DNA of 64,000 bases from Octopus sinensis. Its lineage: Eukaryota. The stretch lies in the NCBI RefSeq assembly GCF_006345805.1, contig NC_043015.1, positions 42,842,001-42,906,000 on the forward strand. The letters are read 5' to 3'. The position numbers and the translations under genes were made by a program. Below are positions 9,290 to 55,000 of the stretch, one piece after another. How positions within the stretch are numbered: position 1 is the stretch's first letter; each line of letters starts with the position of its first letter. The notes beneath the pieces were generated by a model, which saw only the letters and a program-made list of their open reading frames with translations, was not told where the DNA came from and did not search any database.

Positions 9290-10370
9290 GGACGAGCTGT
9301 CAGAATCGTTAGCACACCGGGCGAAATGCTCAGCGGTATTTCGTCTGCCGTTACGTTGTGAGTTCAAATTCCGCCGAGGTCGACTTTGCCTTTCATCCTT
9401 TCGGGGTCGATAAATTAAGTACCAGTTACCCACTGGGGTCGATGTAATCGACTTAATACCTATGTCTGTCCTTGTTTGTCCCCTCTGTGTTTAGCCCCTT
9501 GTGGGTAATAAAGAAATAGGTATTTCGTCTGCTGTTACGTCCTGAGTTCAAATTCCGCCGAGGTCGACTTTGCCTTTCCTCCCTTTGGGGTCGATTAAAT
9601 AAGTACCAGTTACGTACTAGGGTCGATATTATTGACATAATCCCTTTGTCTGTCCCCTCTGTGTTTAGCTCCTTGTGGGTAATAATTAAATAGGCATTTC
9701 GTCTGCTGCTACGTTCTGAATTCAAATTCCGCGGATGTCGACTTTGCCTTTCATCCTTTCGGGGTCGATTAAACAAGTATCAGTTACGCACTGGGGGTCA
9801 ATGTAATCAACTTAATCCGTTTGTCTGTTCTCTCTGTGTTTAGCCCCTTGTGGGTAGTAAAGAAATAGGTATTTCGTCTGCCGTTACATTCTGAGTTCAA
9901 ATTACGCCGAGGTCGACTTTGTCTTTCATCCTTTCGGGATCGATAAATTAAGTACCAGTTACGCACCAGTGGGTAATAAAGAAATAGGTATTTCGTCCGT
10001 CTTTACGCTTCGCCTTCAAACTTCGCTGGGGTCGACTTTGCCTTTCAGCCTTTCGAGGTTGATGAAGTAAGTACCAATCAAGCATATAATCGACTTACTC
10101 CTGACCACGAACGTGCTAACTTGGTGCCAAAATTTGAAACTAATATTTTCCTAAGGCGGTGAGCTGGCAGAATTTTCAGAATTCTTAGCGCGCCGGGGAA
10201 AATGCTTAGCGGCATTACGTCCATCTTTACGTTCTCAGTTCAAATTCCACCGAGATCGACCTTGCCTTTCATCCTTCCGCGGTCAATAAAATAAATATCA
10301 GTTAAGCACTGGAGTCGATGTAATCGGTTTACCTCCAGCCTCGAAATTACTGGCCTAGTACCAAAATTTA
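9290..10370 (+). repeat. SINE family B tandem array (about 165-180-bp units)
   Basis: Repeated GAGTTCAAATTCCGCCGAGGTCGACTTTGCCTTTCATCCTTTCGGGGTCGAT...AAGTACCAGTT...GCCCCTTGTGGGTAATAAAGAAATAGG. Confidence 0.9.
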
Positions 10371-14995: not shown

Positions 14996-15204
14996 GTTGT
15001 TTATATGAAACCGACAGCAAGGTACTCGTCTGCTGTATTCGTAACTTCTCGACAGGAGAGTTCCACTATCCAATTTAACGCGCGCCGTGTGGCCTTCCTT
15101 TCTCTTTCGCCGGTCATAAACGGTGTAGATTCATACAAGGTAAAAGTCGATATATTTATACACATATATATATATTTTATTTTGTATTGAACTCACTATC
15201 AACA

Positions 15205-16863
15205 ATGTCTGATACGTGGAGTGATATCCAAGCTGCCAAAACGAAGCAGAGCAGCATGAGAGCCAAACTGTTAGAAAGGAAACGAAAAAGAGAAGGTATG
15301 GTTGCTGAAATGACAAATGCCGAGTCGTCCAGTTCGGGCTCTTTGTCGGCCGCTGGCATTGCTCAAAGTCAAACACCCCGTGTACCGTCGCCTACCCTTG
15401 CTCCGGATAGCTCTGTTAAAACCGAATACATTAAAGTCGATGCCGAAATCAAAAAGAAGCTATTGCTTGTGTTGTGTGATATAAACCTAGACATACCTTG
15501 TAATGCCACTCAGATCGCGGAGCACACATCTAAAATGTTAGGAAGAGAAGTGAAGCTGATCGTCATTGAAGATCTGTTACAGCAATTGTCCAGTCAGCAG
15601 TTACTTAGCATCGTTTCGAAAGAATCTAAAGATCAAAGCCACATCACCGTAACCTCTCTCGATCTGAGTAAACTCAGCGCTGTTACGAACACTTCGGAGA
15701 ATTCCTCAAACAAAAGAAAGAGAGAAAACGATGATCAAGACAGTTCGGAAAATTCAACGAAACACCTCAAATCATCATCATCTTCATTGAACCAGCCCGA
15801 TGACAGCATCGAGAGTTTACTTTCCATGCAATCAGCGAAAGAAAGAGAACATAAGAAAGTACAAGAAGAAATCTTACAATTACTTAGCAAACCTACAGCG
15901 AAAGAACAATTTCTTGTTGAGAAGTTTAGTTCTCAGGGCGGTGCTCAGCTGCAAGAATTTTGCCAATATGGAACGAAAGACGAATGTATGAAAACCAACC
16001 AGGTATCCGAACCTTGTAAAAGACTTCATTTCAGAAAAATCATTCATAAACACACAGATGAATCGCTTGGTGATTGCTCGTTTCTTAATACATGTTTTCA
16101 TATGGATACATGCAAGTATGTTCACTACGAGATAGACTACCCCGAGAAGAAAAACCAACTGGCTTTATTGAAGAAAGAACTGTCCTTAAGTAAAAAGACT
16201 GGTATGAAGGATGGCACCGTGACCATGTTTCCGCCTCAGTGGGTCCAGTGTGATTTGCGATATTTCGATATGTCCGTTCTGGGGAAATGTGCCGTAGTTA
16301 TGGCTGATCCACCCTGGGATATTCACATGGAGTTACCTTATGGAACCATGAGTGACGATGAGATGAGAAAATTGGATGTACCTAATCTTCAAGACGACGG
16401 TTTCCTGTTTTTGTGGGTGACGGGCAGAGCTATGGAGTTGGGAAGAGAATGTCTGGAGCTGTGGGGTTACAAAAGAGTTGACGAATTGATCTGGGTGAAA
16501 ACGAACCAACTTCAGAGAATCATAAGAACTGGACGTACCGGCCATTGGCTAAACCACGGCAAAGAACACTGCCTTGTTGGAGTTAAAGGTGATCCAAAAG
16601 GCGTGAACAGGGGCCTCGACTGTGATGTGATCGTCGCAGAAGTTCGAGCCACAAGTCATAAACCGGACGAAATCTATGGCATTATAGAACGACTTTCACC
16701 TGGAACTAGGAAAGTCGAACTGTTTGGACGACCGCACAATGTACAACCAAACTGGATTACCTTAGGGAACCAAGTGGATGGAGTACGGCTTAAAGATCCC
16801 GATGTTGTGACAAGTTTTCAAAAACGCTACCCCAATGGAAACTGTATGGAACCTCCGAAATAA
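15205..16863 (+). CDS. METTL3: N6-adenosine methyltransferase catalytic subunit (MT-A70), complete 552-aa CDS in one exon
   Basis: Starts MSDTWSDIQAAK (METTL3-like N-terminus), basic NLS-like RKRKRE, two CCCH zinc fingers (EFCQYGTKDEC...CKRLHF; GDCSFLNTCFHMDTCKYVHY), catalytic DPPW, WVKTNQLQRIIRTGRTGHWLNHGKEHCLVG, ELFGRPHN. No stops or frameshifts; TAA at 16861-16863. Confidence 0.97.
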   Translation: MSDTWSDIQAAKTKQSSMRAKLLERKRKREGMVAEMTNAESSSSGSLSAAGIAQSQTPRVPSPTLAPDSSVKTEYIKVDAEIKKKLLLVLCDINLDIPCNATQIAEHTSKMLGREVKLIVIEDLLQQLSSQQLLSIVSKESKDQSHITVTSLDLSKLSAVTNTSENSSNKRKRENDDQDSSENSTKHLKSSSSSLNQPDDSIESLLSMQSAKEREHKKVQEEILQLLSKPTAKEQFLVEKFSSQGGAQLQEFCQYGTKDECMKTNQVSEPCKRLHFRKIIHKHTDESLGDCSFLNTCFHMDTCKYVHYEIDYPEKKNQLALLKKELSLSKKTGMKDGTVTMFPPQWVQCDLRYFDMSVLGKCAVVMADPPWDIHMELPYGTMSDDEMRKLDVPNLQDDGFLFLWVTGRAMELGRECLELWGYKRVDELIWVKTNQLQRIIRTGRTGHWLNHGKEHCLVGVKGDPKGVNRGLDCDVIVAEVRATSHKPDEIYGIIERLSPGTRKVELFGRPHNVQPNWITLGNQVDGVRLKDPDVVTSFQKRYPNGNCMEPPK

Positions 16864-22313: not shown

Positions 22314-22359
22314 GACACCTGATGAAGGCTGGAGGGCATGTCAGCCGAAACATCGTGTT
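22314..22359 (+). ncRNA. Minimal hammerhead ribozyme motif (Penelope pLTR type)
   Basis: GACAC CUGAUGA a GGCUG..CAGCC GAAA CA UC GUGUU; stems I and II intact. CA may be CpG-decayed CG. Confidence 0.65.
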
Positions 22360-23979
22360 CACAACAAACAAGATGAGGACAAATGGCCATCAAATGTAAA
22401 TAATCTAAATAATGTAAATGGACAAAGTGTTCTAAATTTAAACCTTCCATCACAATTTCATATTCATTCATGTTCCAGATGATGATAATCTTTTTTTTTT
22501 TTTTGATAAAGTTTACATTAATTTTCGAAATTAATTGAAACGAAAACAGAGAATTACGGTAACAAAACGGTTAATTATGGTTTCAAATTTTGCCACAAGG
22601 GCAGCAATTTTCAGGCAGGGGATGAGTCGATTACGTTGACCCCAGTGTTCAACTAGTACTTATTTTATCGAACCCTGAAGGCAAAGTCAATTTCAGTGGA
22701 ATTTGAACTACAAAAAAAAAAAAAATAAAAGGTTTAATAAGGACAACCATTTTACTAAATTCTTTCTTATTTTCAAAATTAAAACTTTCCATTAAAATTT
22801 CAGGTTAATTTACTAGGTTCTCATCAGAAGATTCTAAATCGTTTTAAATATCTCAGAGAATTAAGCAACCAATCTCTTTAGATATGCAACAATTTCAGTA
22901 GCTACAGAGAAATGAGAGTGCTAATTTGCATGCTGCAAATGATAATACTTTATTTAATATCAGGGACCTGTCGATAGGGATCTCAGTTCACACAGTATCT
23001 AAGTATGATGTAATATATGTAACCTAATAAGGCAGCAAGCTTGCAGAAATGTTAGCATGCTGGGCAAAATGCTTAGTGGCATTTCATCTGTCTTCACGTT
23101 CTGAGTTCAAATTCCACCAAGGTCGACTTTGGCTTACTTCCTTTCAAGGTTGATAAATTAAGTACTAGTTGCGTACTGGGGTTGATCTAATCAACTGGCC
23201 CCCTCACCAAAAATTTCAGGCCTTGTGGCTCGTGTAGAAAAAAAAACATTTGCACACTGAACGAAATGCTTAACAGTATTTTGTCTGTCTTTGTGTTCTG
23301 AGTTCAAATTGCACTGACTTTACCTTTCATCCTTTTAGGATCTATAAATTAAGTACCAGTTGTGTACTAGGGTCGATATAATCGACTGGGCCCATCCCCA
23401 AAAGATTTCGGGCCTTGTACTTAGTGTAGAAAAGAATATATGTATAAATATATATATATATATTTGCTAGTACCGCCGGACTGGCCCCATGCCAGTGGCA
23501 CATAAAAGCACCCACTACACTCTCGGAGTGGTTGGCGTTAGGAAGGGCATCCAGCTGTAGAAACTCCACCTGATCAAGATTGAAGCCTGGTTTGCCAGCC
23601 CTCAGTCAAATTGTTAAACCCATGCCAGCATGGAAAGGGGACGTTAAACGATGATCATGATGATGATATATAAGAAAATGGAGAAGAAATATAGTGGATA
23701 CTTATTTTATTTTGTTTGTATCATGATGAAAACATATCAAATAATGTAATACAAATAAAATCTAAAGGAACAGAATCAACAAGAAATAAGCATAAACGAT
23801 GTCTACACATGTTTCAAACTGGAACTTTCTCTCAATATATAAACTGGTACCACCAGTTGATATCTGGATTTTAAGAATCCTTAACAAGGTAATTACATCC
23901 TCAATTTTGACAGTATAATACGTAACCTCATGAATCGTTGGTGATTTTCTTCCTCCGTCTTTCTATTGGACTTTCCTCT

Positions 23980-26484: not shown

Positions 26485-27255
26485 ACCTATTTCTTTACTA
26501 CCCACAAGGGGCAAAACATAGAAGGGACAAACAAGTACAGACAAACGGATTAAGTCGATTATATCGACCCCAGTGCGTAACTGGTACTTATTTAATCGAC
26601 CCCGAAAGGATAAAAGGCAAAGTCGACCTCGGCGGAATTTGAACTCAGAACGTAGCAGCAGACTAAATACCTATTTCTATTTCTTTACTACCCACAAGGG
26701 GCTAAACATTGAAGGGACAAACAAGTACAGACAAACGGATTAATTCGATTATATCGACCACAGTGTGTAACTGGTACTTAATTTATTGACCCCGAAAGGA
26801 TGAAAGGCAAAGTCGACCTCAGCAGAATTTGATCTCAGAACGTAACGGCAGACGAAATAACGCTAAACATTTCGCCTGGCCTGCTAACGTTTCTGTATCT
26901 TTCGGTTGTACACCATGATATTGTTGTAAATGAGCATCACCGTCATACAAGCAGTGTCTTTCTTTCAAGAGGGAAAGCCACGTTTATTCCACAGCACAGA
27001 GGCTCCAAGACTGGTGATCCCTATCCTGTCAGCTTTTGCCGCCCGAATGATAATAGCGGTTTCAAATTTTAGCACAAGGCCAGTAATTTTTAGGGGAGAG
27101 GGTAAGTCGATTACATCGACTCCAGTATACAACTGGTACATATTTTAACGACCCATAAAGGATGGAAAGCAATATCAACCTCAGCGGAATTGGAACTCAG
27201 AACTCCGCTAAGAATTTTGTCCGGCGAACTCGTGATTCTGCCAGCTCGCCGCTCC
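26485..27255 (-). repeat. SINE family B tandem copies
   Basis: Same unit in reverse orientation, three copies. Confidence 0.85.
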
Positions 27256-28359: not shown

Positions 28360-29140
28360 CACACATATATATAAATATGGATAAGATCGTTAATTTAAAA
28401 ATAAAATAATGATTTTATCAAGTGGCCAGCATGGAAAAAATAACCTTCAAAGGTAATAATTATCAAAATTATAAATTAGGGCATCTACGAGATACCACCA
28501 TGCTGAAAATAGCAACCATGATCCAACTTTAAAATCACCTAAATTATAATTTATAATTTTAATAATTATTACCTTTGAAGGTTATTTTTTCCATGCAGGC
28601 CACTTGATAAAATCGTTATTTTATTTTTAAATTAAGGATCTTATCCTTATTTATATAAATTTAAATTTATTTCGTCACTGTATTTACTGCGGTGATATTC
28701 TGACCATATTTCACGTGGAATGAAACGGCGGGCATTTTGAACTGGCCACAATGCAGACGTGTCTATGTTTGTGGGTGTGGCCCACCCTTACTCTGCGGAC
28801 ACTGAATCCACCCGCTTCCCACCCACAAGAAAACAAAAGAAAAAAGATAATGCAAACACACAGGATAACTTAGAAAATTCTAATCCCAATAACAAGGAAG
28901 AAATAGGTGAAATATTGGAAAGGGTTGACAGCCGGGATAGGGCAGGGTTGATGTATGGAATAATTTCTGAGGACCAAGAAAAAGAACTCAAGGAAAAATT
29001 ATTGGAAAAATGTTATAAATTGATTAAGCAAACAATTGAACCGAATAAAAGACATGAACTGGAAGAAATATATGGAAGGAAACTTAGAGGACTACATGTT
29101 TTTCATACCGTTATAGGGAAGAAGGACAGGTAAGTGATTC

Positions 29141-31354: not shown

Positions 31355-31390
<36 letters not shown>

Positions 31391-31600
31391 TGAATTCAGG
31401 AAATACAGCTTGCATTAATAATAATAGGAGTAGGAGTGGCTATGTGGTAAGTAGCTTGCTTACCAACCACATGGTTTCGGTTTCAGTCCCACTGCGTGGC
31501 ACCTTGAGCAAGTGTTTTACTATAACCTCGGGCCCACCAAAGCCTTGTGAGTTGATTTGGTAGACGGAAACTGAAAGAAGCCCGTCGTGTATGTATATGG

Positions 31601-31645
<45 letters not shown>

Positions 31646-33684
31646 CATACACGACGGGCTTCTTTCAGTTTCCGTCTACCAAATCAACTCACAAGGCTTT
31701 GGTGGGCCCGAGGTTATAGTAAAACACTTGCTCAAGGTGCCACGCAGTGGGACTGAAACCGAAACCATGTGGTTGGTAAGCAAGCTACTTACCACATAGC
31801 CACTCCTACTCCTATTATTATTAATGCAAGCTGTATTTCCTGAATTCAAATTCCCGTGGTTTTAAGAAGATTACTGGTCATCTTGCTTCAGCCTGTCACC
31901 AGGCACAAATCGCAGTGACTAAGAAAGCGGTTCTCATGTTGTAGAAGCATTTACCACTATCATCCAATGATGTACAGACGTTTCTCTATGGCTTCCTCAT
32001 GCTGTCAACTGAAAATCCCACGGTGATGGAAAAGTGGAGACATGTGTAGACCTAACCAGTTGTAAGTGGACATTAACTTACAACTTTCATCTGTCACCTA
32101 CGCTTCTGAACATATAGATCTGTAGGCCATCTGAGAGGTCATGGGCGGAAAGTGAGATATGCTTTTGACAACAAGGAGACACAAAGGGATGGCAATCATT
32201 CTTTAAAGAATCTAATCGACTGACCTCCTCCCCCTAAAATTATGCGCCTTGTGCCTAGAGGAGACCCCCCCCCCACCGCGATAGGTGAACATCTGTGAAG
32301 TAGAAACCATACTGTACTCACTCTTTTACTCTTTTCTCTTTTACTTGTTTCAGTCATTTGACTGTGGCCATGCTGGAGCATCGCCTTTAGTCGAGCAAAT
32401 CGACCCCAGGACTTATTCTTTTGCCGAACCGCTAGCTTAAGGGGACATAAACACACCAGCATCGGTTGTCAAGCGAAGTTGGGGGGACAAACACAGACAC
32501 ATAAACATGCACACATACACACACACACACATATACGACAGGCTTCTTTCAGTTTCTGTCTACCAAATCCACTCATAAGGCCTTGGTCGGCCCGAGGCTA
32601 TAGTAGAAGACACTTGCCCAAGGTGCCACACAGTGGGACTGAACCCAGAACCATGTGGTTCGTAAGCAATCTACTTACTACACAACCACTCCTACACCTA
32701 CTCTATTTTTTTTTATAATTTATATATATTTATTTTATTATAAATGCAAACAGCACCACGGAGAAATCAACGTAAGCTTGAATAGCGAACTGCGATATGG
32801 CGAGGGATTACTCTATATGCATGTGTGTGACTGTTTATATATTTGTGTACATTCTTGTGTGTGGGCACGAGTGCATGTGGTTGTGCTTGTGTCTGTGTGT
32901 GTGTGTGTGTGCGTGCCTCTGTGTGTGGTTGTGTTTATGTTTATGTTCATGCGTGATATGTGTGTGTACGTATGCTTGGGTGTGTGTATATGCGTGCGGT
33001 GGTTTTGAACAAAGTCAGAGTGAGAGATGCGACGTAGACCAAAGTTGCATTCGAACACAGAATATAAAAAAAAATTAATTAAAGAAGAAAAAAAACTGAA
33101 AGACGAAAAAGGATAAAAAAGGGGAATGATGTAATATATTTTATTTTTAGCCCAGTGCTGCAGGGAGGGAGGGGAGGAAGAAAGAAAGGAAGAAGCATGA
33201 AAGAAAGAAAGAAGGAACGAAGGAAGAAATATATGAAGTGAAAGAGAAATGCTGGCTTTTTCTTCTTTCCTTTAAACTTTCCTTCGATATTTCGCATTTA
33301 TGAATGAATGAATGAAAGAAAGAAGGGTGTTTTAGAATTGCAAGGAATTAATAAGTTGGCAGAGCATCTAAGAATTTCTCAAGATGTTTGATTTGGTTAT
33401 CTTATAATTTTGGCTGACAATAATCAGGTTTCTACAGACATTTGTTCTTTCTTCCTTTCTTTCTTTTCTTTCTATCTTTCTTTCCTTTTTCTTTTGCATC
33501 TGTCTGCCTGGGTAATAAATTTTACTGAGCTGTCAGCGAGAAAGAACTGGTAAAAATCTGTAATGATATGGTTAGATCATCTTGAGGGAGAGAAGGGATG
33601 GGTGGGGAGGGAGAGGGAATGAACAATTGGGAAAATATCGTAGCCAGTCTGATAGAAATCCTCCTCCTCTCCTTCCTCTGCATT

Positions 33685-38360: not shown

Positions 38361-40669
38361 ACTTTGCCTTTCATCCTTTCGGGGTCAATAAATAAAGTAC
38401 CAGTTACGCACTAGGGTCGATGTAATCGACTTAATCCGTTTGTCTGTCATTGTTTGTCCCCTCTATGTTTAACCCCTTGTGGGCAATAAAGAAATATATA
38501 TATGTATATAGTCATTTACTTGTTTCGGTCATTTGACTGTGGCCATGCTGGAGCACCACTTTTAGTCGAGCAAATTGACCCCAGGACTTGTTCTTTGTAA
38601 GCCTGGTACTTATTCTATCGGTCTCTCTTGACGAACCGCTAAGTTACGGGGATGTAAACACACCGGCATCGGTTGTCAAGCGATGTTGGGGATACAACCA
38701 CAAACACACACACACACGCATATATACAACGGGCTTCTTTCAGTTTCTGTCTACCAAATCCACTCAGAAGGCTTTGGTCAGCCCGAGGCTATAGCAGAAG
38801 ACACTTGCCCAAGATGCCACGCAGTGGGACTGAACCCGGAACCATGTGGTTGGTAAGCAAGCTACTTACCACACAGCCACTCCTACGCTTATAGTATATA
38901 TAAATCAACGTCATCATCATCATTAACATCTATTTTCCCTGCTGGCATGGGTTACACACACACACACATACATACACACATACACACACATACAGTGATT
39001 GTTCTCAGATTAAGTAAAATTCCACTTCTTTATATCATTTTCTGTTTTGATCATTCACATTAATAATTAAAATAATTATAAAACAAACTTATGGCTGATA
39101 GATGATGATATACAAAGCAAAGAAACAAAACTCAAAAAAACCCTCACCACAGCACCACACACTCACACACACACATCTCCTGCCCGCCCACGTATCCCCA
39201 CCACCACCACCACCACCACTGCTATTTCACTTACCATTCTCACCACAATGTTATTAATATTAAATGATGGGCAAGAAAAATTGGCAGATAACCCTTTTTT
39301 TTTGTTGGCATTTTGGGGCACATATTTCTAGAAACCTAATTGTTTTAATTCCAACAAAATTGTGTAACAAGCCAACACACATATTACAAGAGATATAATA
39401 TATACCATACAAATAAAACAAACTTCTTGTCATGTTGCCAAGCTGAGAGAAGTTCTGGTCATTTGATTTCTTTCTCATATTATACAATATAATACTAATT
39501 CTCAGAGGAATATACCAAGCCAAGTTCAGACTACAGTTCTTTGTCTTTGCCAGGGATTTCTATGAGAAGAAAATTTTTTGACTATATTTTTGTCTGGAGC
39601 ATCAATTACATATGCCAATAAACTTCATTTTCAAAAATATATTCAAACCATATTCAGAGGATATGTGTGTGACATGTCATACATACATATATACATACAG
39701 ACAGACAAACAGACATACAGGCATATATACATAAGCGCACACGTGTGTTTATCTATCTATTTGTCTGTCTGTCCGTCCGTCCATCCATTCAACCATCTAT
39801 CTAGTTCCATAGAAAGAAAAGCCTACGGAAAAGACCACGGTAACCTCAGGCAGGGAGGAAATATACACGAGAGCAAAGTGCTCTCTCTGTCTCTCTCCTT
39901 TTTCGATTTACAGGATCATGCTCAAAGTGGTTTCGTCACTCGCACGTACCATCTTTGCTGCAAGTGACAAAACCACTTTGAGCATGATCCTGTAAATTGA
40001 AAAAGGAGAGAGACAGAGAGAGCACTTTGCTCTCACGTGTGTATTCCCTCCCTGCCTGAGGTTACCGTGGTTTTTCTGTAGGTTTTTCTTTCCATGGATA
40101 AACCTAATCTTGCTTCTTACATTAAAAATTTTTTTCTGTGATACACAATCTCTTTTGATTGCTTTTTTTTTCCCAACCCCTTTTGATTGGGATTTTACTT
40201 TTTTTTCTCTTTTTTTCCCGATCCTTCTGCCATGTAAAAATTCCCATGCTGCATCATGTAAAAACATTCATACTGTGTCATGTAAAAGGATTTCTGCTGC
40301 ATCATGTAAAAGTGTCCATGTGGTGTCATGCAAAAGCATCCATGTGGCATTACGTAAAAGTGCCTGTGCAGTGCCATGTAAAAGCACCCAGCACGCTCTG
40401 TAAGGTGGTTGGCATTAGGAAGGGCATCCAGCTGTAGAAATGGTCAGCCCATTAACTTTCAGCTGACCTTTGTACACACACACATATACATTTATACACA
40501 TAAATACATCTATCTATCTATACATACATACACATACATATATATATACATGTAAAAGGGCAGCAAGCTGGCAGAATCATTAGCACGCCAGGCGAAATGC
40601 TTAGCAGTATTTCGTCTGTCATTACATTCTGAGTTCAAACTCCGCCGAGTTTGACTTTGCCTTTCATCC

Positions 40670-43493: not shown

Positions 43494-43875
43494 CTAGCAG
43501 TATCGCCCGGCGTTGCTCAGGTTTGTAAGGGAAATAACTATAAAGCATTTTTAGAGTTATAGCCAAAAAATAGCAAAAAAATGGAAAAAAAATTATGGTA
43601 AATTTTTTTTTGAGTTAGAAAAGGTCGAGTTGCGTCCCCTAGACAGTCTGTGGTTTGTGTTTCTGATTCTCGACCCCATGTCGAATTTATCGATTTTTTT
43701 CAGAACTGGGGGAACTTTTCAAAATTTTCGCTGCGTTAGTTTTGAATTATGACATTGGGCTATGTGTGTGTCAAGTTTCATCAGAATCGGTTGAAAGCCG
43801 TGGTCAGGGTGAGGGTACAACCTAACAGACACACAGAAACACACACAGACAAACTGCCGTTTATATAGAGAGAGA
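43494..43875 (-). mobile_element. Non-autonomous Helitron (same 3' end, different 5' half)
   Basis: A|TCTCTCTCTATATAA start; CCTGAGCAACGCCGGGCGATACTGCTAG|T end. Confidence 0.8.
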
Positions 43876-45004
43876 TAAGATGAAATGTTTTATGTTTGCT
43901 GCCCACACACATCTTTGCCAGTATATATGCAGTGAAGCTTTACTATAACATCGTAAAATTATTGACTACTATTTCCAGTAAACATTGGAGCCTTGTAACA
44001 TTCCATATATATATATATCATCATCATCATCGTTATATATATATGGAATGTTACAAGGCTCCAATGTTTACTGGAAATAGCAGTCAATAATTTTACAATG
44101 TTATAGTAAAGCTTCACTGCATATATACTGGCAAAGATGTGTGGGCAGTGAACATAAAACATTTTATCTTACCTCTAAGAAGAGCATTACATAAATGGAC
44201 AACCCAGATTTGGATAATCTAGTACTTAGGTTTCGAACTCTTCAAATATGTTTGTAATTATAAATTTGATTAGTCTTCTTCAGCTAAATTTACCTGGACA
44301 ATATTTCAAATGTTGCTACATCAATGCCAGTATACTTGCCTGAATGCCTAGCTGTTAACAGAACCAAGAACATATACTATGAAGGTGCATGGCTCAGTGG
44401 TTACGGTGTTGCATTCATGATTACGAGGTTGTGGGTTCGATTCTCAGACCGGGCGTTATATTGTGTTCTTGAGCAATGCACTTCATTTCACATTGCTCTG
44501 CGATTATTTCATCATCTGACATGTGGCACCCATTGCACCTGTACAGGTAATGTCAATCTGATGCCGGGAGTGAGCTTACGTGTACACAAACATTTGATCT
44601 CTATAAACAAACAATAACCTGTGTGGTTGTTCGGTCAGAAGTTGTCGAACCCTCATACGTCGTCCAATGACGAGAGAGTCCGTCATATGTAAACAATATC
44701 GCTGTTTATTTTCATTTTTTGACAAAAATTTTCAGGACACAAAAATTGAAGGAACGAACATGTTGAAGTTATTAATTAACAAATCTTTATTTAAGACTAT
44801 AGAAATTAATAATAATAATAATAATAATAATAATGATAATAATAATAATTATGATAATAATAATAATAATTATAATAATAATAATAATAGTAAAGAATGA
44901 GAGGAAAAAATATAAATTAAAAATAAAACAAAATTTCATGTTCCCATGTGAAATGACTCAAACAATGGATTTAGAATAAAGAATGTAAACAAAAACGCAG
45001 TGTG

Positions 45005-47260: not shown

Positions 47261-48678
47261 TAAATATATTATGCACACACACACATATATATTACCTGTA
47301 TATATCATAAATGATATTATATATACTTATATTGCATATAAATTACATTACATATACAACCACATTGAATCCTTTTTTTTTTTTAATAAGAACATGACCA
47401 CGAGTAGTAACTGGTGATCCCAATTCTCAATTGCACAGCTATTTGGTTGATCAGACATCAGTCTGGACCTTGGACAATGTAGGACTGAAAAGGTCGAAGT
47501 ATATTTTTTTTAGTAAAAAAAATGAATTTTTTTTTTACTTTGAAAAAAAAAAAAAAAGAGAGAGAGGGAGAGAGATAAAGCAAAAAAAAAAAATGTAGAA
47601 GAGGTAAAAAAAAAAGACAAGTAATTAGTTAGTTAGGAAGACAATGTAGATAATAAATAGTGATTTCTTACTCAGGCACAAGGCCACAAATTATCATAGC
47701 AGTATGGAGGCAGAGATGTTGGAGTTGTGGTTTCAAATGTTGGGGGTGAATGAAGATAGTATGGCATAGAAGACGTTTCGTAATTAAAAAAAATTTTTTG
47801 TCTTTTTTTCCTCTCAGTTGGTTTTTCACACTTTTTTGTTTTTTTTAATATTTAAAGGTCGTTAGCGTGACATCATATTATTATGAAATGAATTATGTTT
47901 TAATTTTTAACCGGGGATTAGATATAAGAAATGAGGATGATGGTGGTGGTGGAGGGAGAGTGGGTAAGAAAAAAATAAAAAAATAAAAAAAAATGAATGG
48001 TGGACTCTGCTCACCGGGAGCCAGCCCCTTCTTGTACAATGTTCACCATGAGATATTAACGGGAGAAAAAAAAAACTAATAAAGATATAATTGAAAAACG
48101 AAATTAAAACCAAGTGAAATGAATATTCATAAAAGAAAAACAGACAAAAAAGCGAAAATTAAAAATGCAAAATAAAAATAAAACAGAAAAAAAAAAAACT
48201 CGAAGAACTAAATCGATAGGATTCAAAAAAAGGACAATTTACAAAAAAATTCTTAATTTCATTTCTAAGAATTTTAGAACATTATTTCTTCTGATCTAGT
48301 AAATATATAAATTTAGATTTCATACACACACACACACACACACACATATTTATAATCCCAGGAATACGCCCTATGATCTTAAAATATTAATAAATTCCAT
48401 CCAAGGGACTGTTATTAGTTTTACTATATTTATCCTACATTATATCGGCACAGCTTGGTGTGACCCCAAAAAAACTGGTATTGCCAAATGGCATCATTAG
48501 GCTGTGGTCAACACAATAAAACAGGAGCTTTCATATACATACTGAAAACGTTTCCTGTAAACAAACTTAGAGGATATATATATATACTGTTGTGTCTGGG
48601 GAGAGTCATTCTCTTTTAGTGCCTTATAATTTAACACACTCACCGGTAAAATTTCCACTTATTTCTTATTTTTATTTT

Positions 48679-48715
48679 CTAAAATTTTCATTGCGTCTTG
48701 CAACCTTTTCAATAG
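48679..48715 (-). ncRNA. Minimal hammerhead motif, U3-A8 core variant, at a foldback axis
   Basis: Minus: CUA UUGAAAA G GUUGC aagac GCAAU GAAA AU UU UAG; palindromic AAAAUUUU. Confidence 0.55.
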
Positions 48716-49643
48716 TGACTATTTTAGAAAATAAAAATAAGAAATAAGTGGAGATTTTACCGGTGAGTGTGTTAAAAGGCACTAAAAGAGAATGACTCTC
48801 CCCAGATACAACAGAATATGGTCCAACACACGAACTCATATAAAGAATCTTGCAAACCAAATCCAAAAATGAAATATATATATATATATATACATACACA
48901 CACATACATACATACATACATATATATGTATGTGTGTATATATATGTGTATGTGCATATATACTTTTTAAAATTTATATATATACACATATATATATATA
49001 TATACCTCACTCCTACACATATATATATATTATGTGTGCATACATACATATAAATTTATACACACTGATTTACAACCTTGAAAGAATGGTATCTTCGTAT
49101 GTCTCAAACACAAAATGAAAATAACTAGATTCTACATTTCACTGTAGAATTTATCCTAAGTTGTTTGTAGAACTGGTCTTCTTAATCTTTGAGTGAAAGC
49201 TGTCATACCTTAAATATATCTTTGCATACATATATATACACACATACATATATATGTGCATAATACATGAGCATGTAATTCTGGCTATTATGTTGATAAT
49301 ATATGATACTACCTCTTAGAAATATATATTTTGGTATAGTTCATAATACATAGTATATCTGTAAATTATATATTATACATAGTATATATATATGATTTAG
49401 TATATGTACTATATAGATTCTAGCACAACTCATCACATTTCTCAAAGTTCCTAAATTATTATAACACTAACTATACAGTTTAGTATTGAAATAATAGAGC
49501 ATATATGTCTATATATATATATATATAATGTAGAAGGATGAAAAGAGACACACGAGTTGATATATATGGGAAAAAAAAGTCACGCTAGAAAATGCTAAAA
49601 TAATTTTATAAAAAAAATTTCAGTACCGGTTTCAGTCATTGAA

Positions 49644-49680
49644 TTGAAAAAGTCTCAATGACTGAAACCGGTACTGAAAT
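49644..49680 (+). ncRNA. Minimal hammerhead motif, U3-A8 core variant, at a foldback axis (5' strand of stem I lost at the junction)
   Basis: UUGAAAA AGUC ucaau GACU GAAA CCGG UA CUGAAAU; palindromic ACCGGU, GUA triplet. Confidence 0.55.
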
Positions 49681-50031
49681 GGTTTTATAAAATTATTTTA
49701 GCATTTCCTATCTTGACTTTTTTTCTATAGATATATATATATAACATACATACACATTACACATATATATGTATAACATTTCTCTTCTCTCTCTCTACAC
49801 ACACACACACATGTACAAGCTAAGTAAGATTGAATTTGCAAGTGTCATTTGTATTGGTTTTTTTTTATCTTTGCCTGATGAGCTGAACATGGGTCACATT
49901 TAATATGCCGTAATAATATTACATAATCATTTATACTAAAGATGTGTCTGAACCACATATGTATACATGTAACAACATCCACCTCCAATTTTGTACTTAG
50001 CACTATATATGTATATACATACACTCATATA

Positions 50032-52077: not shown

Positions 52078-55000
52078 CCTTTCTACTATAGGCACAAGGC
52101 CTGGGGTTTGTGGGGAGGCAGTAGAATCGGTCACATCGACCCCAGTACTTGACTGGTACTTAATTTATCAACCCCCAAAAGGATGAAAGGCAAAGTTGAC
52201 CTTAGTGGAATTTGAACTCAGAATGTAATGATGGGTGAAATACCACTAGCTAAGCATGTCCAACGCGCTAATGATTCTGCCAACTCACCACCTAATAATA
52301 ATAATAATAATAATTTTTTCTAGTGGAGGCACAAGGTCTCAAATTTGTCGGTTGGGGACTAGTCAACTAAATCGACCCCAGCGTTTCACTGGTACTTAAT
52401 TTATCGACCCCGAAAGGATGAAAGGCAAAGTCAACCTCAGCGGAATTTGAACTCAGAACGTAAAGACAGACGATATACTGCTAAGCATTTCACCTGGCGT
52501 GGTAACGTTTCTACCAGCTCGCCGCCTTTAACAAGAATATTCTTTTCTACTCTAGGCACAAGGCCTGAAATTTTGGGGGTGGGGCCAGTCGATTAGATCG
52601 GCTCCAGTACACAACTTATTTTATCGACCCCGAAAGGATGAAAGGCAAAGTCAATGTTGGCGGAATTTGAACTCAAAATATAGCGATGGGTTAAATATCG
52701 GTAAGCATTTTATCCAATGCACTAACGATTCTGCCAGCTAGCCGCCTTAATAATAATAATAATAATATAATAATAATAATAATAATCCTTTTTGCAATAG
52801 GCACAAGGCCGGAAATTTTGGTGGGAGGGGGGTAAGTCGATTACATTGAGCCCCAGTGCATAACTGGTACTTATTTTATTGACCTTGAAATCATGAAAGG
52901 TGAAGTGGACCGTGACGGAATTTGAACTTAATACATCAAGATGGACAAAATGCCGCTAATTAGTTTTGCCTGGCATGGTAACGATCCTACCAGCTTGTTA
53001 CCTTCATAATAATAACAACAATAATAATAATAATAATAATAATGATTTCAAAATTTGGCACTAGGCCTGCAATTTCGTGGGACGGGGGAAGTCAGTTATA
53101 TCAACCCCAGTGCATAACTGGTACTTTTTTTATCGACCCCCGAAAGGATGAAAGGCAAAGTTGACCCTGGCAGAATTTGAACACTGAATGTGAAAACAGG
53201 CCAAGTGTTGCTAAGCAATTCACCTGGCATGCTAACAGTTCTGCCAGCTCACCACTTAATAATAATAATAACAATAATAATAATAATAATGATAATAATA
53301 ATAACAGGCAAAAGCCATGCATTCTAGGGCTTAGGAACAGAGAATTAAATTGTTCCCAGCCCAGCACTTGACTGTCAACTTTGGAATGGTAGAAATCAAA
53401 GTTAACTCTGGCAAGACATGAACTATGATCACAACCAAATACAGCCAGGTATGGATTTATCCACACACTGACCATCAAAAGTAATAATAATGATAATTAT
53501 TATTTAAAATTTTCGCCACAAGGGCAGCTTAGGGAAGGTGGTGGTGAGTTGATTACATTGACCCCCCCCCCCATGTTTAACTGGTACTTATTTTATTGAC
53601 CTCAAAATAATGAAAGGCAAAGTCGACCTTGGCGGAATTTGAACTCAGAACATAGCGGCAGACGAAATACCTATTTCTTTTCTACCCACAAGGGGCTAAA
53701 CACAGAGAGGACAAACAAGGACAGACAAACGGATTAAGTCGATTATATCGACCCCAGTGCATAACTGGTACTTATTTAATCAACCCCGAAAGGATGAAAG
53801 GCAAAGTCAACCTCGGTGGAATTTGAACTCAGAACATAGCGGCAGATGAAATACCTATTTCTTTACTACCCACAAGGGGCTAAACACAGAGAGGACAAAC
53901 AAGGACAGACAAACGGATTAAGTCGATTATATCGACCCCAGTGCATAACTGGTACTTATTTAATCAACCCTGAAAGGATGAAAGGCAAAGTCAACCTCGG
54001 TGGAATTTGAACTCAGAACGTAGTGGCAGGTGAAATACCGCTAAGCATTTCGCCCGTCATGCTAATGGTTCTGCTAGCTCGCTGCCTTAATAATAATAAT
54101 AATCCTTTCTACTGGAAGCATAGGGCCTCAAATTTGGGGGAAGGGATTAAGTCAATTACATCGGCCCAAGTGCATAACTGGTACTTATTTAATCAACCCT
54201 GAAAGGATGAAAGGCAAAGTCGACCTTGGTGGAATTTGAACTCAGAACATAGCGACGGGCGAAATACCGGTAAGCATTTTGACCAACATGCTAATGATTC
54301 TGTAATAATAATGGTTTCGAATTTTGGCACAATGCCAGCAATTATTTTTTAGGGGGAGGAGCAACATCGACTACAACGACCCCAGTGCTCAACTGTTACT
54401 TGTTTAGTCAACTCTCAAAGAATGAAAGGCTAAGTGGATTTTGGCAGAGTTTGAACTCAGAATGTGAAGACAGACGAAACATTTTGCCTGGAGCAGTAAC
54501 AACTCTGTTCGTTCATCACAATAATAATAATAATAATAATAATAATATATTAATCCTTTCTACTAAAGGCACAAGTCCTGAAATTTATGGAAGGGGGATA
54601 GTTGATTACATCGACCCCCAGTACTCAGCTGGTACTCATTTTATTGACCCCGAAATGATAAAAGTCAAAGTCGACCTCGGTGGAATTTGAACTCAGGACG
54701 TAGTGGCAGGTGAAATAGTGCTAAGCATTTTGCCCAGCATGCTAACGTTTCTGCCAGCTCGCCGCCTTATGCCTTAATAATAGTAATGGTTTCAAATTTT
54801 GGCACTAGGCCAGAAATTTCAAGGGACGGGTAAGTTGATTACATTGACCCGCCCAGTAATCAAATGGTACTTATTTTATCGACCCTCAAGGATGAAAGGC
54901 AAAGTTGACCATGGCAAAATTTGAACTCAGAATGTAAAGACGGATGAAATGCCGCTAAGCATTTTGTACATCCCATGAAGAATTCGGCCAGCTTGCTGCC

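Follow-up and report, generated by a model that had tools for sequence, protein, structure and literature searches.

The layout of the family analyzed here, pLTR-ORF-pLTR, is the one given for Penelope-like elements (PLEs) in the sections covered of PMC8557442, of the curation guide PMC8969392, and of the paper on Adineta Pen2a (PMC3846280). In vitro, the Penelope protein of PMC11167929 cuts both strands of AT-rich DNA, at ATT. Reverse transcription by this protein begins at either of two internal sites, which mark the borders of a tail, and insertion proceeds without hammerhead activity. The sections of that paper covered give no twin-priming account of inverted or solo pLTRs. For the Cercyon PLEs of Schistosoma, PMC4209133 describes pairs of motifs on opposite strands, 100-700 bp apart, and minimal U3-A8 hammerheads with low activity in vitro. 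Two published features bear on the 5' end discussed below or on its interpretation: the internal promoter of the D. virilis Penelope carries the DPE RGACGTGY (PMC2377424), and the extra G at the 5' ends of full-length L1 and SVA has been ascribed to copying of the cap (PMC3287187). Octopus is mentioned in PMC8557442 for Naiads. Our literature search found no description of the present family in octopus; Repbase, Dfam, and supplements were outside this search and may hold it.

The window, i.e., the whole stretch of 64,000 nucleotides analyzed, contains a protein-less stub of an abundant Neptune-type PLE, one of thousands in the genome. The insertion is ordinary and of a known type, and its inverted-pLTR architecture has already been published (PMC3846280). 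The family to which it belongs is a large natural sample on how PLEs form inverted pLTRs and tails, and on the role of the hammerhead.

The hairpin in the window and its hammerhead

The unit is a 289-nt hairpin composed of the following features.

48574-48586, no strand: left (AT)n target, read from the sequence; any target-site duplication is masked by the microsatellite
48587-48716, minus strand: inverted pLTR arm lacking the tail; it spans -35 to about +99 in family positions counted from the predicted cut
48679-48715, minus strand: minimal type I hammerhead motif, U3-A8 variant, from descriptor and fold; predicted cut 48682/48681
48717-48725, plus strand: head-to-head junction, GACT-ATT joined to TTAG, read from the sequence
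48721-48814, plus strand: direct pLTR arm, containing the start codon of the parent ORF at 48792-48794
48815-48875, plus strand: Penelope "tail", present on one arm only, through which the parent ORF continues for ~19 codons
48875-48892, no strand: right (TA)n target, read from the sequence

The inverted arms of about 100 bp reported by a sequence-only reading are confirmed. The alignment of 48582-48685 with 48721-48819 has 96 matches in 104 sites and one 5-nt gap, and the DNA fold of the hairpin has an energy of -105.9 kcal/mol (z -29), equalled by 0 of 100 shuffles. The same reading had both arms ending in (TA)n. This is correct for the left arm, which abuts the (AT)n at 48574-48586, but not for the right arm, which extends 56-61 nt through the family-conserved tail before reaching (TA)n. 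The right arm does begin, as claimed, about 4 nt before the position equivalent to the cut (48721 against 48725). It is without 28 nt of the hammerhead core, between two ATT repeats, which would be explained by a deletion or a template jump. The 4-nt offset of this copy is due to that 28-nt loss.

The junction type of the window has nine genomic matches with five different centers, and the exact center of the window is found in one of the nine. No PLE coding remnant was found in the 64-kb window by tblastn with five PLE proteins. Among 150 of the 217 Rfam matches listed, there was no hammerhead family, and miRNA hairpin models matched the hairpin only below threshold. Because such sub-threshold models do match, hairpins of this kind are easily mis-filed as miRNA precursors, as they are as MITEs.

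The minus-strand motif reads CUA / UUGAAAA / extra G / GUUGC-AAGAC-GCAAU / GAAA-AU-UU / UAG. Stem I (CUA, 48715-48713) has only 3 bp, U3 to A9 occupy 48712-48706, the extra G lies between A9 and G10.1, and stem II is GUUGC/GCAAU. The features of a minimal type I hammerhead are present: the core, the extra nucleotide, G10.1-C11.1, stems I and II, and covariation. In the window copy, position 11.1 is U and not C, a CpG-type change common to 22 of 123 family stretches. The covariation is seen across families, with U3-A8 here against C3-G8 in a sibling family, plus new stem II pairs. The hammerhead descriptor, which was composed after the motif had been seen and was later widened to admit the sibling's C at position 9, has two matches in the window; any match occurred in 1 of 100 shuffled windows. 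U3 is found in 110 of the 123 family stretches and A8 in 119. This retention shows the state of the master copy, not selection. By descriptor and fold, the U3-A8 core seen by the sequence-only reading is a genuine hammerhead as a sequence motif.

A second minimal hammerhead is observed at 22314-22360 on the plus strand, with a canonical C3-G8 core, an extra A, and a 5-bp stem II. The 120-140 nt around it recur in seven alignments among the fetched loci, twice in both orientations, and it is likely the pLTR of another Penelope family.

Foldbacks are common in the window. One more lies between TA runs at 49545-49735, 700 nt away from the hairpin; it is MITE-like, and a related copy is found at another fetched locus. 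Local palindromes of 300-490 nt with 83-92% identity are at 1159-1638, 28365-28660, 39806-40098, and 43871-44176. A near-perfect (99%) palindrome of 466 nt at 31388-31851 is centered on (TA)n and consists of a common repeat together with flanking sequence; it either arose by inverted duplication or is an artefact of the assembly. An abundant SINE-like repeat forms tandem arrays, with units of 175-190 nt, at 9335-10076, 26487-26859, and 53578-54039. An uninterrupted, apparently intronless frame of 594 codons at 15079-16860 (plus strand) encodes an MT-A70 domain (E 3e-61) and, by its N-terminus, is presumably METTL3-like.

The parent element and its family

The same pLTR follows the exon-free end of a GIY-YIG ORF, some hundred bases downstream, in all 30 best endonuclease loci, a set which includes the query itself and in which two loci look duplicated. 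Eighteen of the 30 end with the tail, and about nine directly oriented ones stop at the tail-less site. On the other side, 25 loci were retrieved with the N-terminal part of the ORF, and in 13 of them the pLTR and tail run directly into its start. The start codon is within the pLTR (48792 in the window), 72 nt after the predicted cut, and the tail codes for the subsequent residues. The frame, beginning MTLPR, continues into the ORF in eight translated 5' pLTR copies, some of them with breaks. One tail-selected locus continues upstream into a GIY-YIG frame. The complete order pLTR-ORF-pLTR is present in three of five long stretches (L303, L304, and L307), and two also have an inverted pLTR at the 5' side. 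The autonomous PLE that the sequence-only reading had proposed to look for is in the genome, and its assignment of the motif to a Penelope-type minimal hammerhead, in a pLTR accompanied by an inverted pLTR fragment, holds.

The GIY-YIG domain (PF01541) is above the cut-off in the parent ORF. A long copy (P0002) has, by eye, the YVDD and DKG motifs of reverse transcriptase (RT), followed by a C-x4-C-x2-C linker and, at the C terminus, GIY-YIG. Pfam RVT_1 has no match in the broken frames of the family itself and matches homologs only below the cut-off; the putative RT is assigned from the YVDD and DKG motifs and from these homologs with weak RVT_1 matches. The family has the composition of an EN+ PLE: RT and C-terminal GIY-YIG in a single ORF, direct pLTRs at both ORF ends, an optional tail which is the ORF start, an inverted 5'-truncated pLTR, and target-site duplications of variable length. 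The linker of P0002 follows the CX2-5CxxC pattern of Neptune before GIY-YIG. The Neptune-type label is based on this linker, which is also a feature of Nematis in the sections covered of PMC8557442, and is to be taken as probable. A protein labelled Octopus vulgaris is up to 99% identical to a family in the genome.

A search with the 289-nt element against the 2.72-Gb assembly gave 2,830 candidates, and all 40 scored places match over at least 274 nt. A 33-mer variant of the tail has 1,886 exact genome matches (control 0), which is a lower bound on the copy number. Since the whole-element search selects junctions resembling the query, the junction statistics are based on tail-selected loci, namely the first 90 of the 1,886 matches, on contig 1, a sample biased to young, tailed copies. 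All junction positions are counted from the predicted ribozyme cut (0).

An inverted pLTR is found within 330 nt in 65 of the 90 sampled insertions. The outer end of the inverted, tail-less arm is at +92..+102 in 58 of these 65. Both outer ends of the family copies are fixed, and the center is variable. Outside the 5 long copies and 12 TA loci, a flank duplication is present in 53 of 73 loci, against 34 of 300 mismatched-flank controls; the duplications vary from 8 to 15 bp. Targets are generally AT-rich. TA is at the right flank of 12 of 90 sampled loci, and (TA)n is on both flanks in 3 of 65 foldbacks, so that TA microsatellites, named by the sequence-only reading as the target, are a minority.

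It had also been proposed from the sequence alone that such copies form a separate, non-autonomous foldback family. The centers of the copies vary, and an autonomous parent with the same pLTR is present, both of which contradict this proposal. Junction coordinates recur in just two pairs among the 65, with differing sequences. Two related arrangements were considered and rejected. A foldback moving as a unit is not seen, as no identical center junction is common to many copies. A non-LTR retrozyme, with head-to-tail tandem units each carrying a hammerhead, is not seen either, as the arrangement here is head-to-head. One short tandem (L032/L033) was observed among the fetched loci.

An ordinary MITE of a DNA transposon of the Tc1/mariner type, with a TA duplication, can be set aside almost completely. 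Long inverted arms with TA flanks would suit it in this one copy, but the ends are asymmetric and tailed, the flank duplications and the center are variable, and the same sequence flanks an RT-GIY-YIG ORF. Symmetric TIR ends with a fixed TA duplication were not found. On this point, the sequence-only reading was right.

The sibling Penelope family (L243-L252 and L273-L302) shows 60% protein identity to the focal family and has 630 exact matches to a 39-mer. It is younger, with unbroken frames of 880-1,120 codons. Its hammerhead is at the same place, with C3-G8, an extra G, a different stem II of 6 bp, and C replacing A9. It has a homologous tail and long inverted copies. Most copies end in (TA)n, and targeting of (TA)n is strong. 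In all seven inverted pairs, exactly one arm is tailed and one is tail-less, in either order.

Arm ends and the proposed mechanism

The sequence-only reading supposed that the two arms were ribozyme-delimited RNAs. Among the 150 inner arm ends counted (5 long arms were left out), 63 are at -46..-28, that is, 28-46 nt upstream of the cut, and 13 are within 5 nt of it, where 7.8 are expected if uniform. There is a small excess at +1..+9 (18 of 150). By eye, these ends are A-rich and alignment-sensitive, and the apparent peak at +1..+4 is mostly a G/GG difference from the reference together with A-rich ends. Some of the +1..+9 ends may be cleavage-made 5' ends, as a minor signal. Most junctions are not placed by cleavage at the ribozyme.

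It is accordingly very unlikely that the copies are non-autonomous ribozyme foldbacks with arms derived from RNAs that the hammerhead has cleaved, and that such foldbacks target TA microsatellites or move as a unit. The hammerhead is real, the right arm of the window starts 4 nt before the cut, the ends at +1..+9 form a minor bump, and insertions are far more often short, with the pLTR only, than long (of 90 tailed arms, 82 start at or after -46), all of which would agree with such a family. These points are outweighed by the position of the arm ends, 13 within 5 nt of the cut against 63 upstream, by the two coordinate-sharing pairs of different sequence and the unique exact junction of the window, and by the rarity of TA on both sides.

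One of the upstream ends is sharp. Fifteen of 63 arms mapped base by base stop exactly at -44. G precedes eight of these 15, and it precedes 2 of 16 neighboring stops where G is possible. Among exact genome matches, the base at -45 is non-template in 767 and the template C in 755, and about half of the arms in which the -44 region is intact stop at -44. The sequence continues upstream in 0 of 30 matches with a non-template base, against 19 of 20 with the template C. In the first 100 listed, the non-template base is G in 59, A in 28, and T in 13 (G expected 23%, p 2e-14). Most of these G residues are also readable as target or partner-arm sequence, and what they show is a favored pairing with a C that terminates the cDNA; they do not prove that a base was added. 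A literature search found no cap signature in PLEs. In the sibling family, a sharp 5' end was sought and not replicated; 26 of 30 arms run on upstream.

A DPE is placed at +28 from the start of transcription. Counted from -44, the bases +28..+32 read AGACG, which resembles the DPE RGACGTGY of the internal promoter of D. virilis Penelope, as given in the part covered of PMC2377424. Judged from DNA junctions, position -44 is probably a capped transcription start.

We consider the stub to be the pLTR and tail of a Neptune-type PLE with an inverted, tail-less pLTR, made in one insertion by two reverse-transcription events, with a probability of about 0.7. This reading builds on the demonstrated parent family, the fixed 3' ends at about +99 and +156, the flank duplications of the relatives, the sharp -44 end, and the shared subfamily alleles. 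The two 3' ends are used independently in the family, as tailed and tail-less direct copies show. The arms of one copy agree at three subfamily columns in 30 of 33, 28 of 31, and 29 of 32 cases. The own partner arm is the closest one in 9 of 40 copies, and rare changes are shared in 20 of 264 cases. This comparison fits the same source lineage followed by decay; it is no proof of a single template molecule.

In the proposed order of events, Pol II would use an internal promoter and begin a capped RNA at -44. AT-rich DNA would be nicked by the RT-GIY-YIG protein on both strands, at a distance of about 8-15 bp; copying would be primed at +156 by one nick and at +99 by the other. As each cDNA would extend toward the cap, copying would be limited to the initial 150-200 nt of the RNA. 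The short template may derive from the 5' end of the full mRNA; alternatively, short transcripts that serve as template may arise from 3' or solo pLTRs. The two cDNA ends would then join by microhomology, resulting in a head-to-head palindrome, whose center would often be trimmed, then or later; here, the hammerhead core of the right arm would have been lost in this way. The hammerhead would be carried along, lying within the initial 44 nt of this RNA, and is not likely to set junctions. The best mechanism is still the one that the sequence-only reading had suggested, in which each end of a single break receives its own cDNA copy.

An alternative keeps the same parent but derives the inverted arm from self-priming: the first cDNA, or else an antisense template, would fold back on itself at AGTC-AA-GACT. 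This small palindrome at -42..-33 is within the junction hot spot of -46..-28, the arms share subfamily alleles, and fold-back has been proposed for rotifer Penelopes in the part covered of PMC3846280. Nevertheless, the tail-less end is also found on direct copies with no partner, the tail is found on either arm, extra bases can separate two arms that both extend to -40..-45, and solo arms with flank duplications also stop at -44. Fold-back is therefore considered improbable here, though less so than the ribozyme-delimited arms.

Beyond the two-priming reading of the single stub, we tentatively propose, at less than even odds, that the stubs are a genomic record of twin priming by a dimeric protein on the capped 5' end of the element's own mRNA, with SINE-like re-amplification of solo pLTRs and with the hammerhead as a decapping switch. 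Renewed amplification of solo pLTRs, in the manner of a SINE, may be possible since the putative internal promoter is retained in every stub along with the two start sites. The hammerhead, which overlaps the putative DPE of the promoter, would be a switch for mRNA decapping, not a tool for making insertion ends. The positions that the family offers for testing are -44 for the start of the RNA, about +99 and +156 for the initiation of RT, and 0 for the cut.

Comparison with known systems

The comparisons below refer to the sections covered of the cited papers. The closest system is Pen2a_Av, an EN+ PLE of Adineta vaga (PMC3846280). As here, it has direct pLTRs with an adjacent inverted pLTR, and the tail is on one inverted pLTR. 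Its ORF also starts inside the pLTR, with the tail coding for the next residues. Palindromes at head-to-head junctions, N-rich stretches in the ORF, and duplications of 8-10 bp are further likenesses. The tail is about 56-61 nt here versus 31 nt in the A. vaga elements, and, unlike in these, there are thousands of copies here, mostly a pLTR with an inverted pLTR and no ORF.

Poseidon PAc of Anolis (PMC11167929) has two internal RT starts that delimit the tail, as is likely for the present family, and shares an AT-rich target with it; its hammerhead is dispensable for insertion in vitro. PAc belongs to the Poseidon clade without a Zn-finger linker, and its start codon is in stem II of the hammerhead, versus 72 nt after the cut here. 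Neptune and Nematis (PMC8557442) share with our family the C-terminal GIY-YIG, the CX2-5CxxC linker, and CCHH-type residues. The mostly (TA)n ends of the sibling are also alike, whereas the focal family differs in its general AT-rich targets.

The hammerhead resembles those of the Cercyon PLEs of Schistosoma (PMC4209133) in the U3-A8 core, the extra nucleotide between 9 and 10.1, G10.1-C11.1, the short helix I, and the palindromic loop 3. Both helices are shorter than in Cercyon, helix II with 5 against 7-8 bp and helix I with 3 against 4-5 bp. Non-LTR retrozymes (10.64898/2026.07.22.740005) are likewise non-coding, related to PLE pLTRs, and equipped with a type I hammerhead. They form head-to-tail arrays, in contrast to the head-to-head pairs or solo arms with flank duplications of the octopus family.
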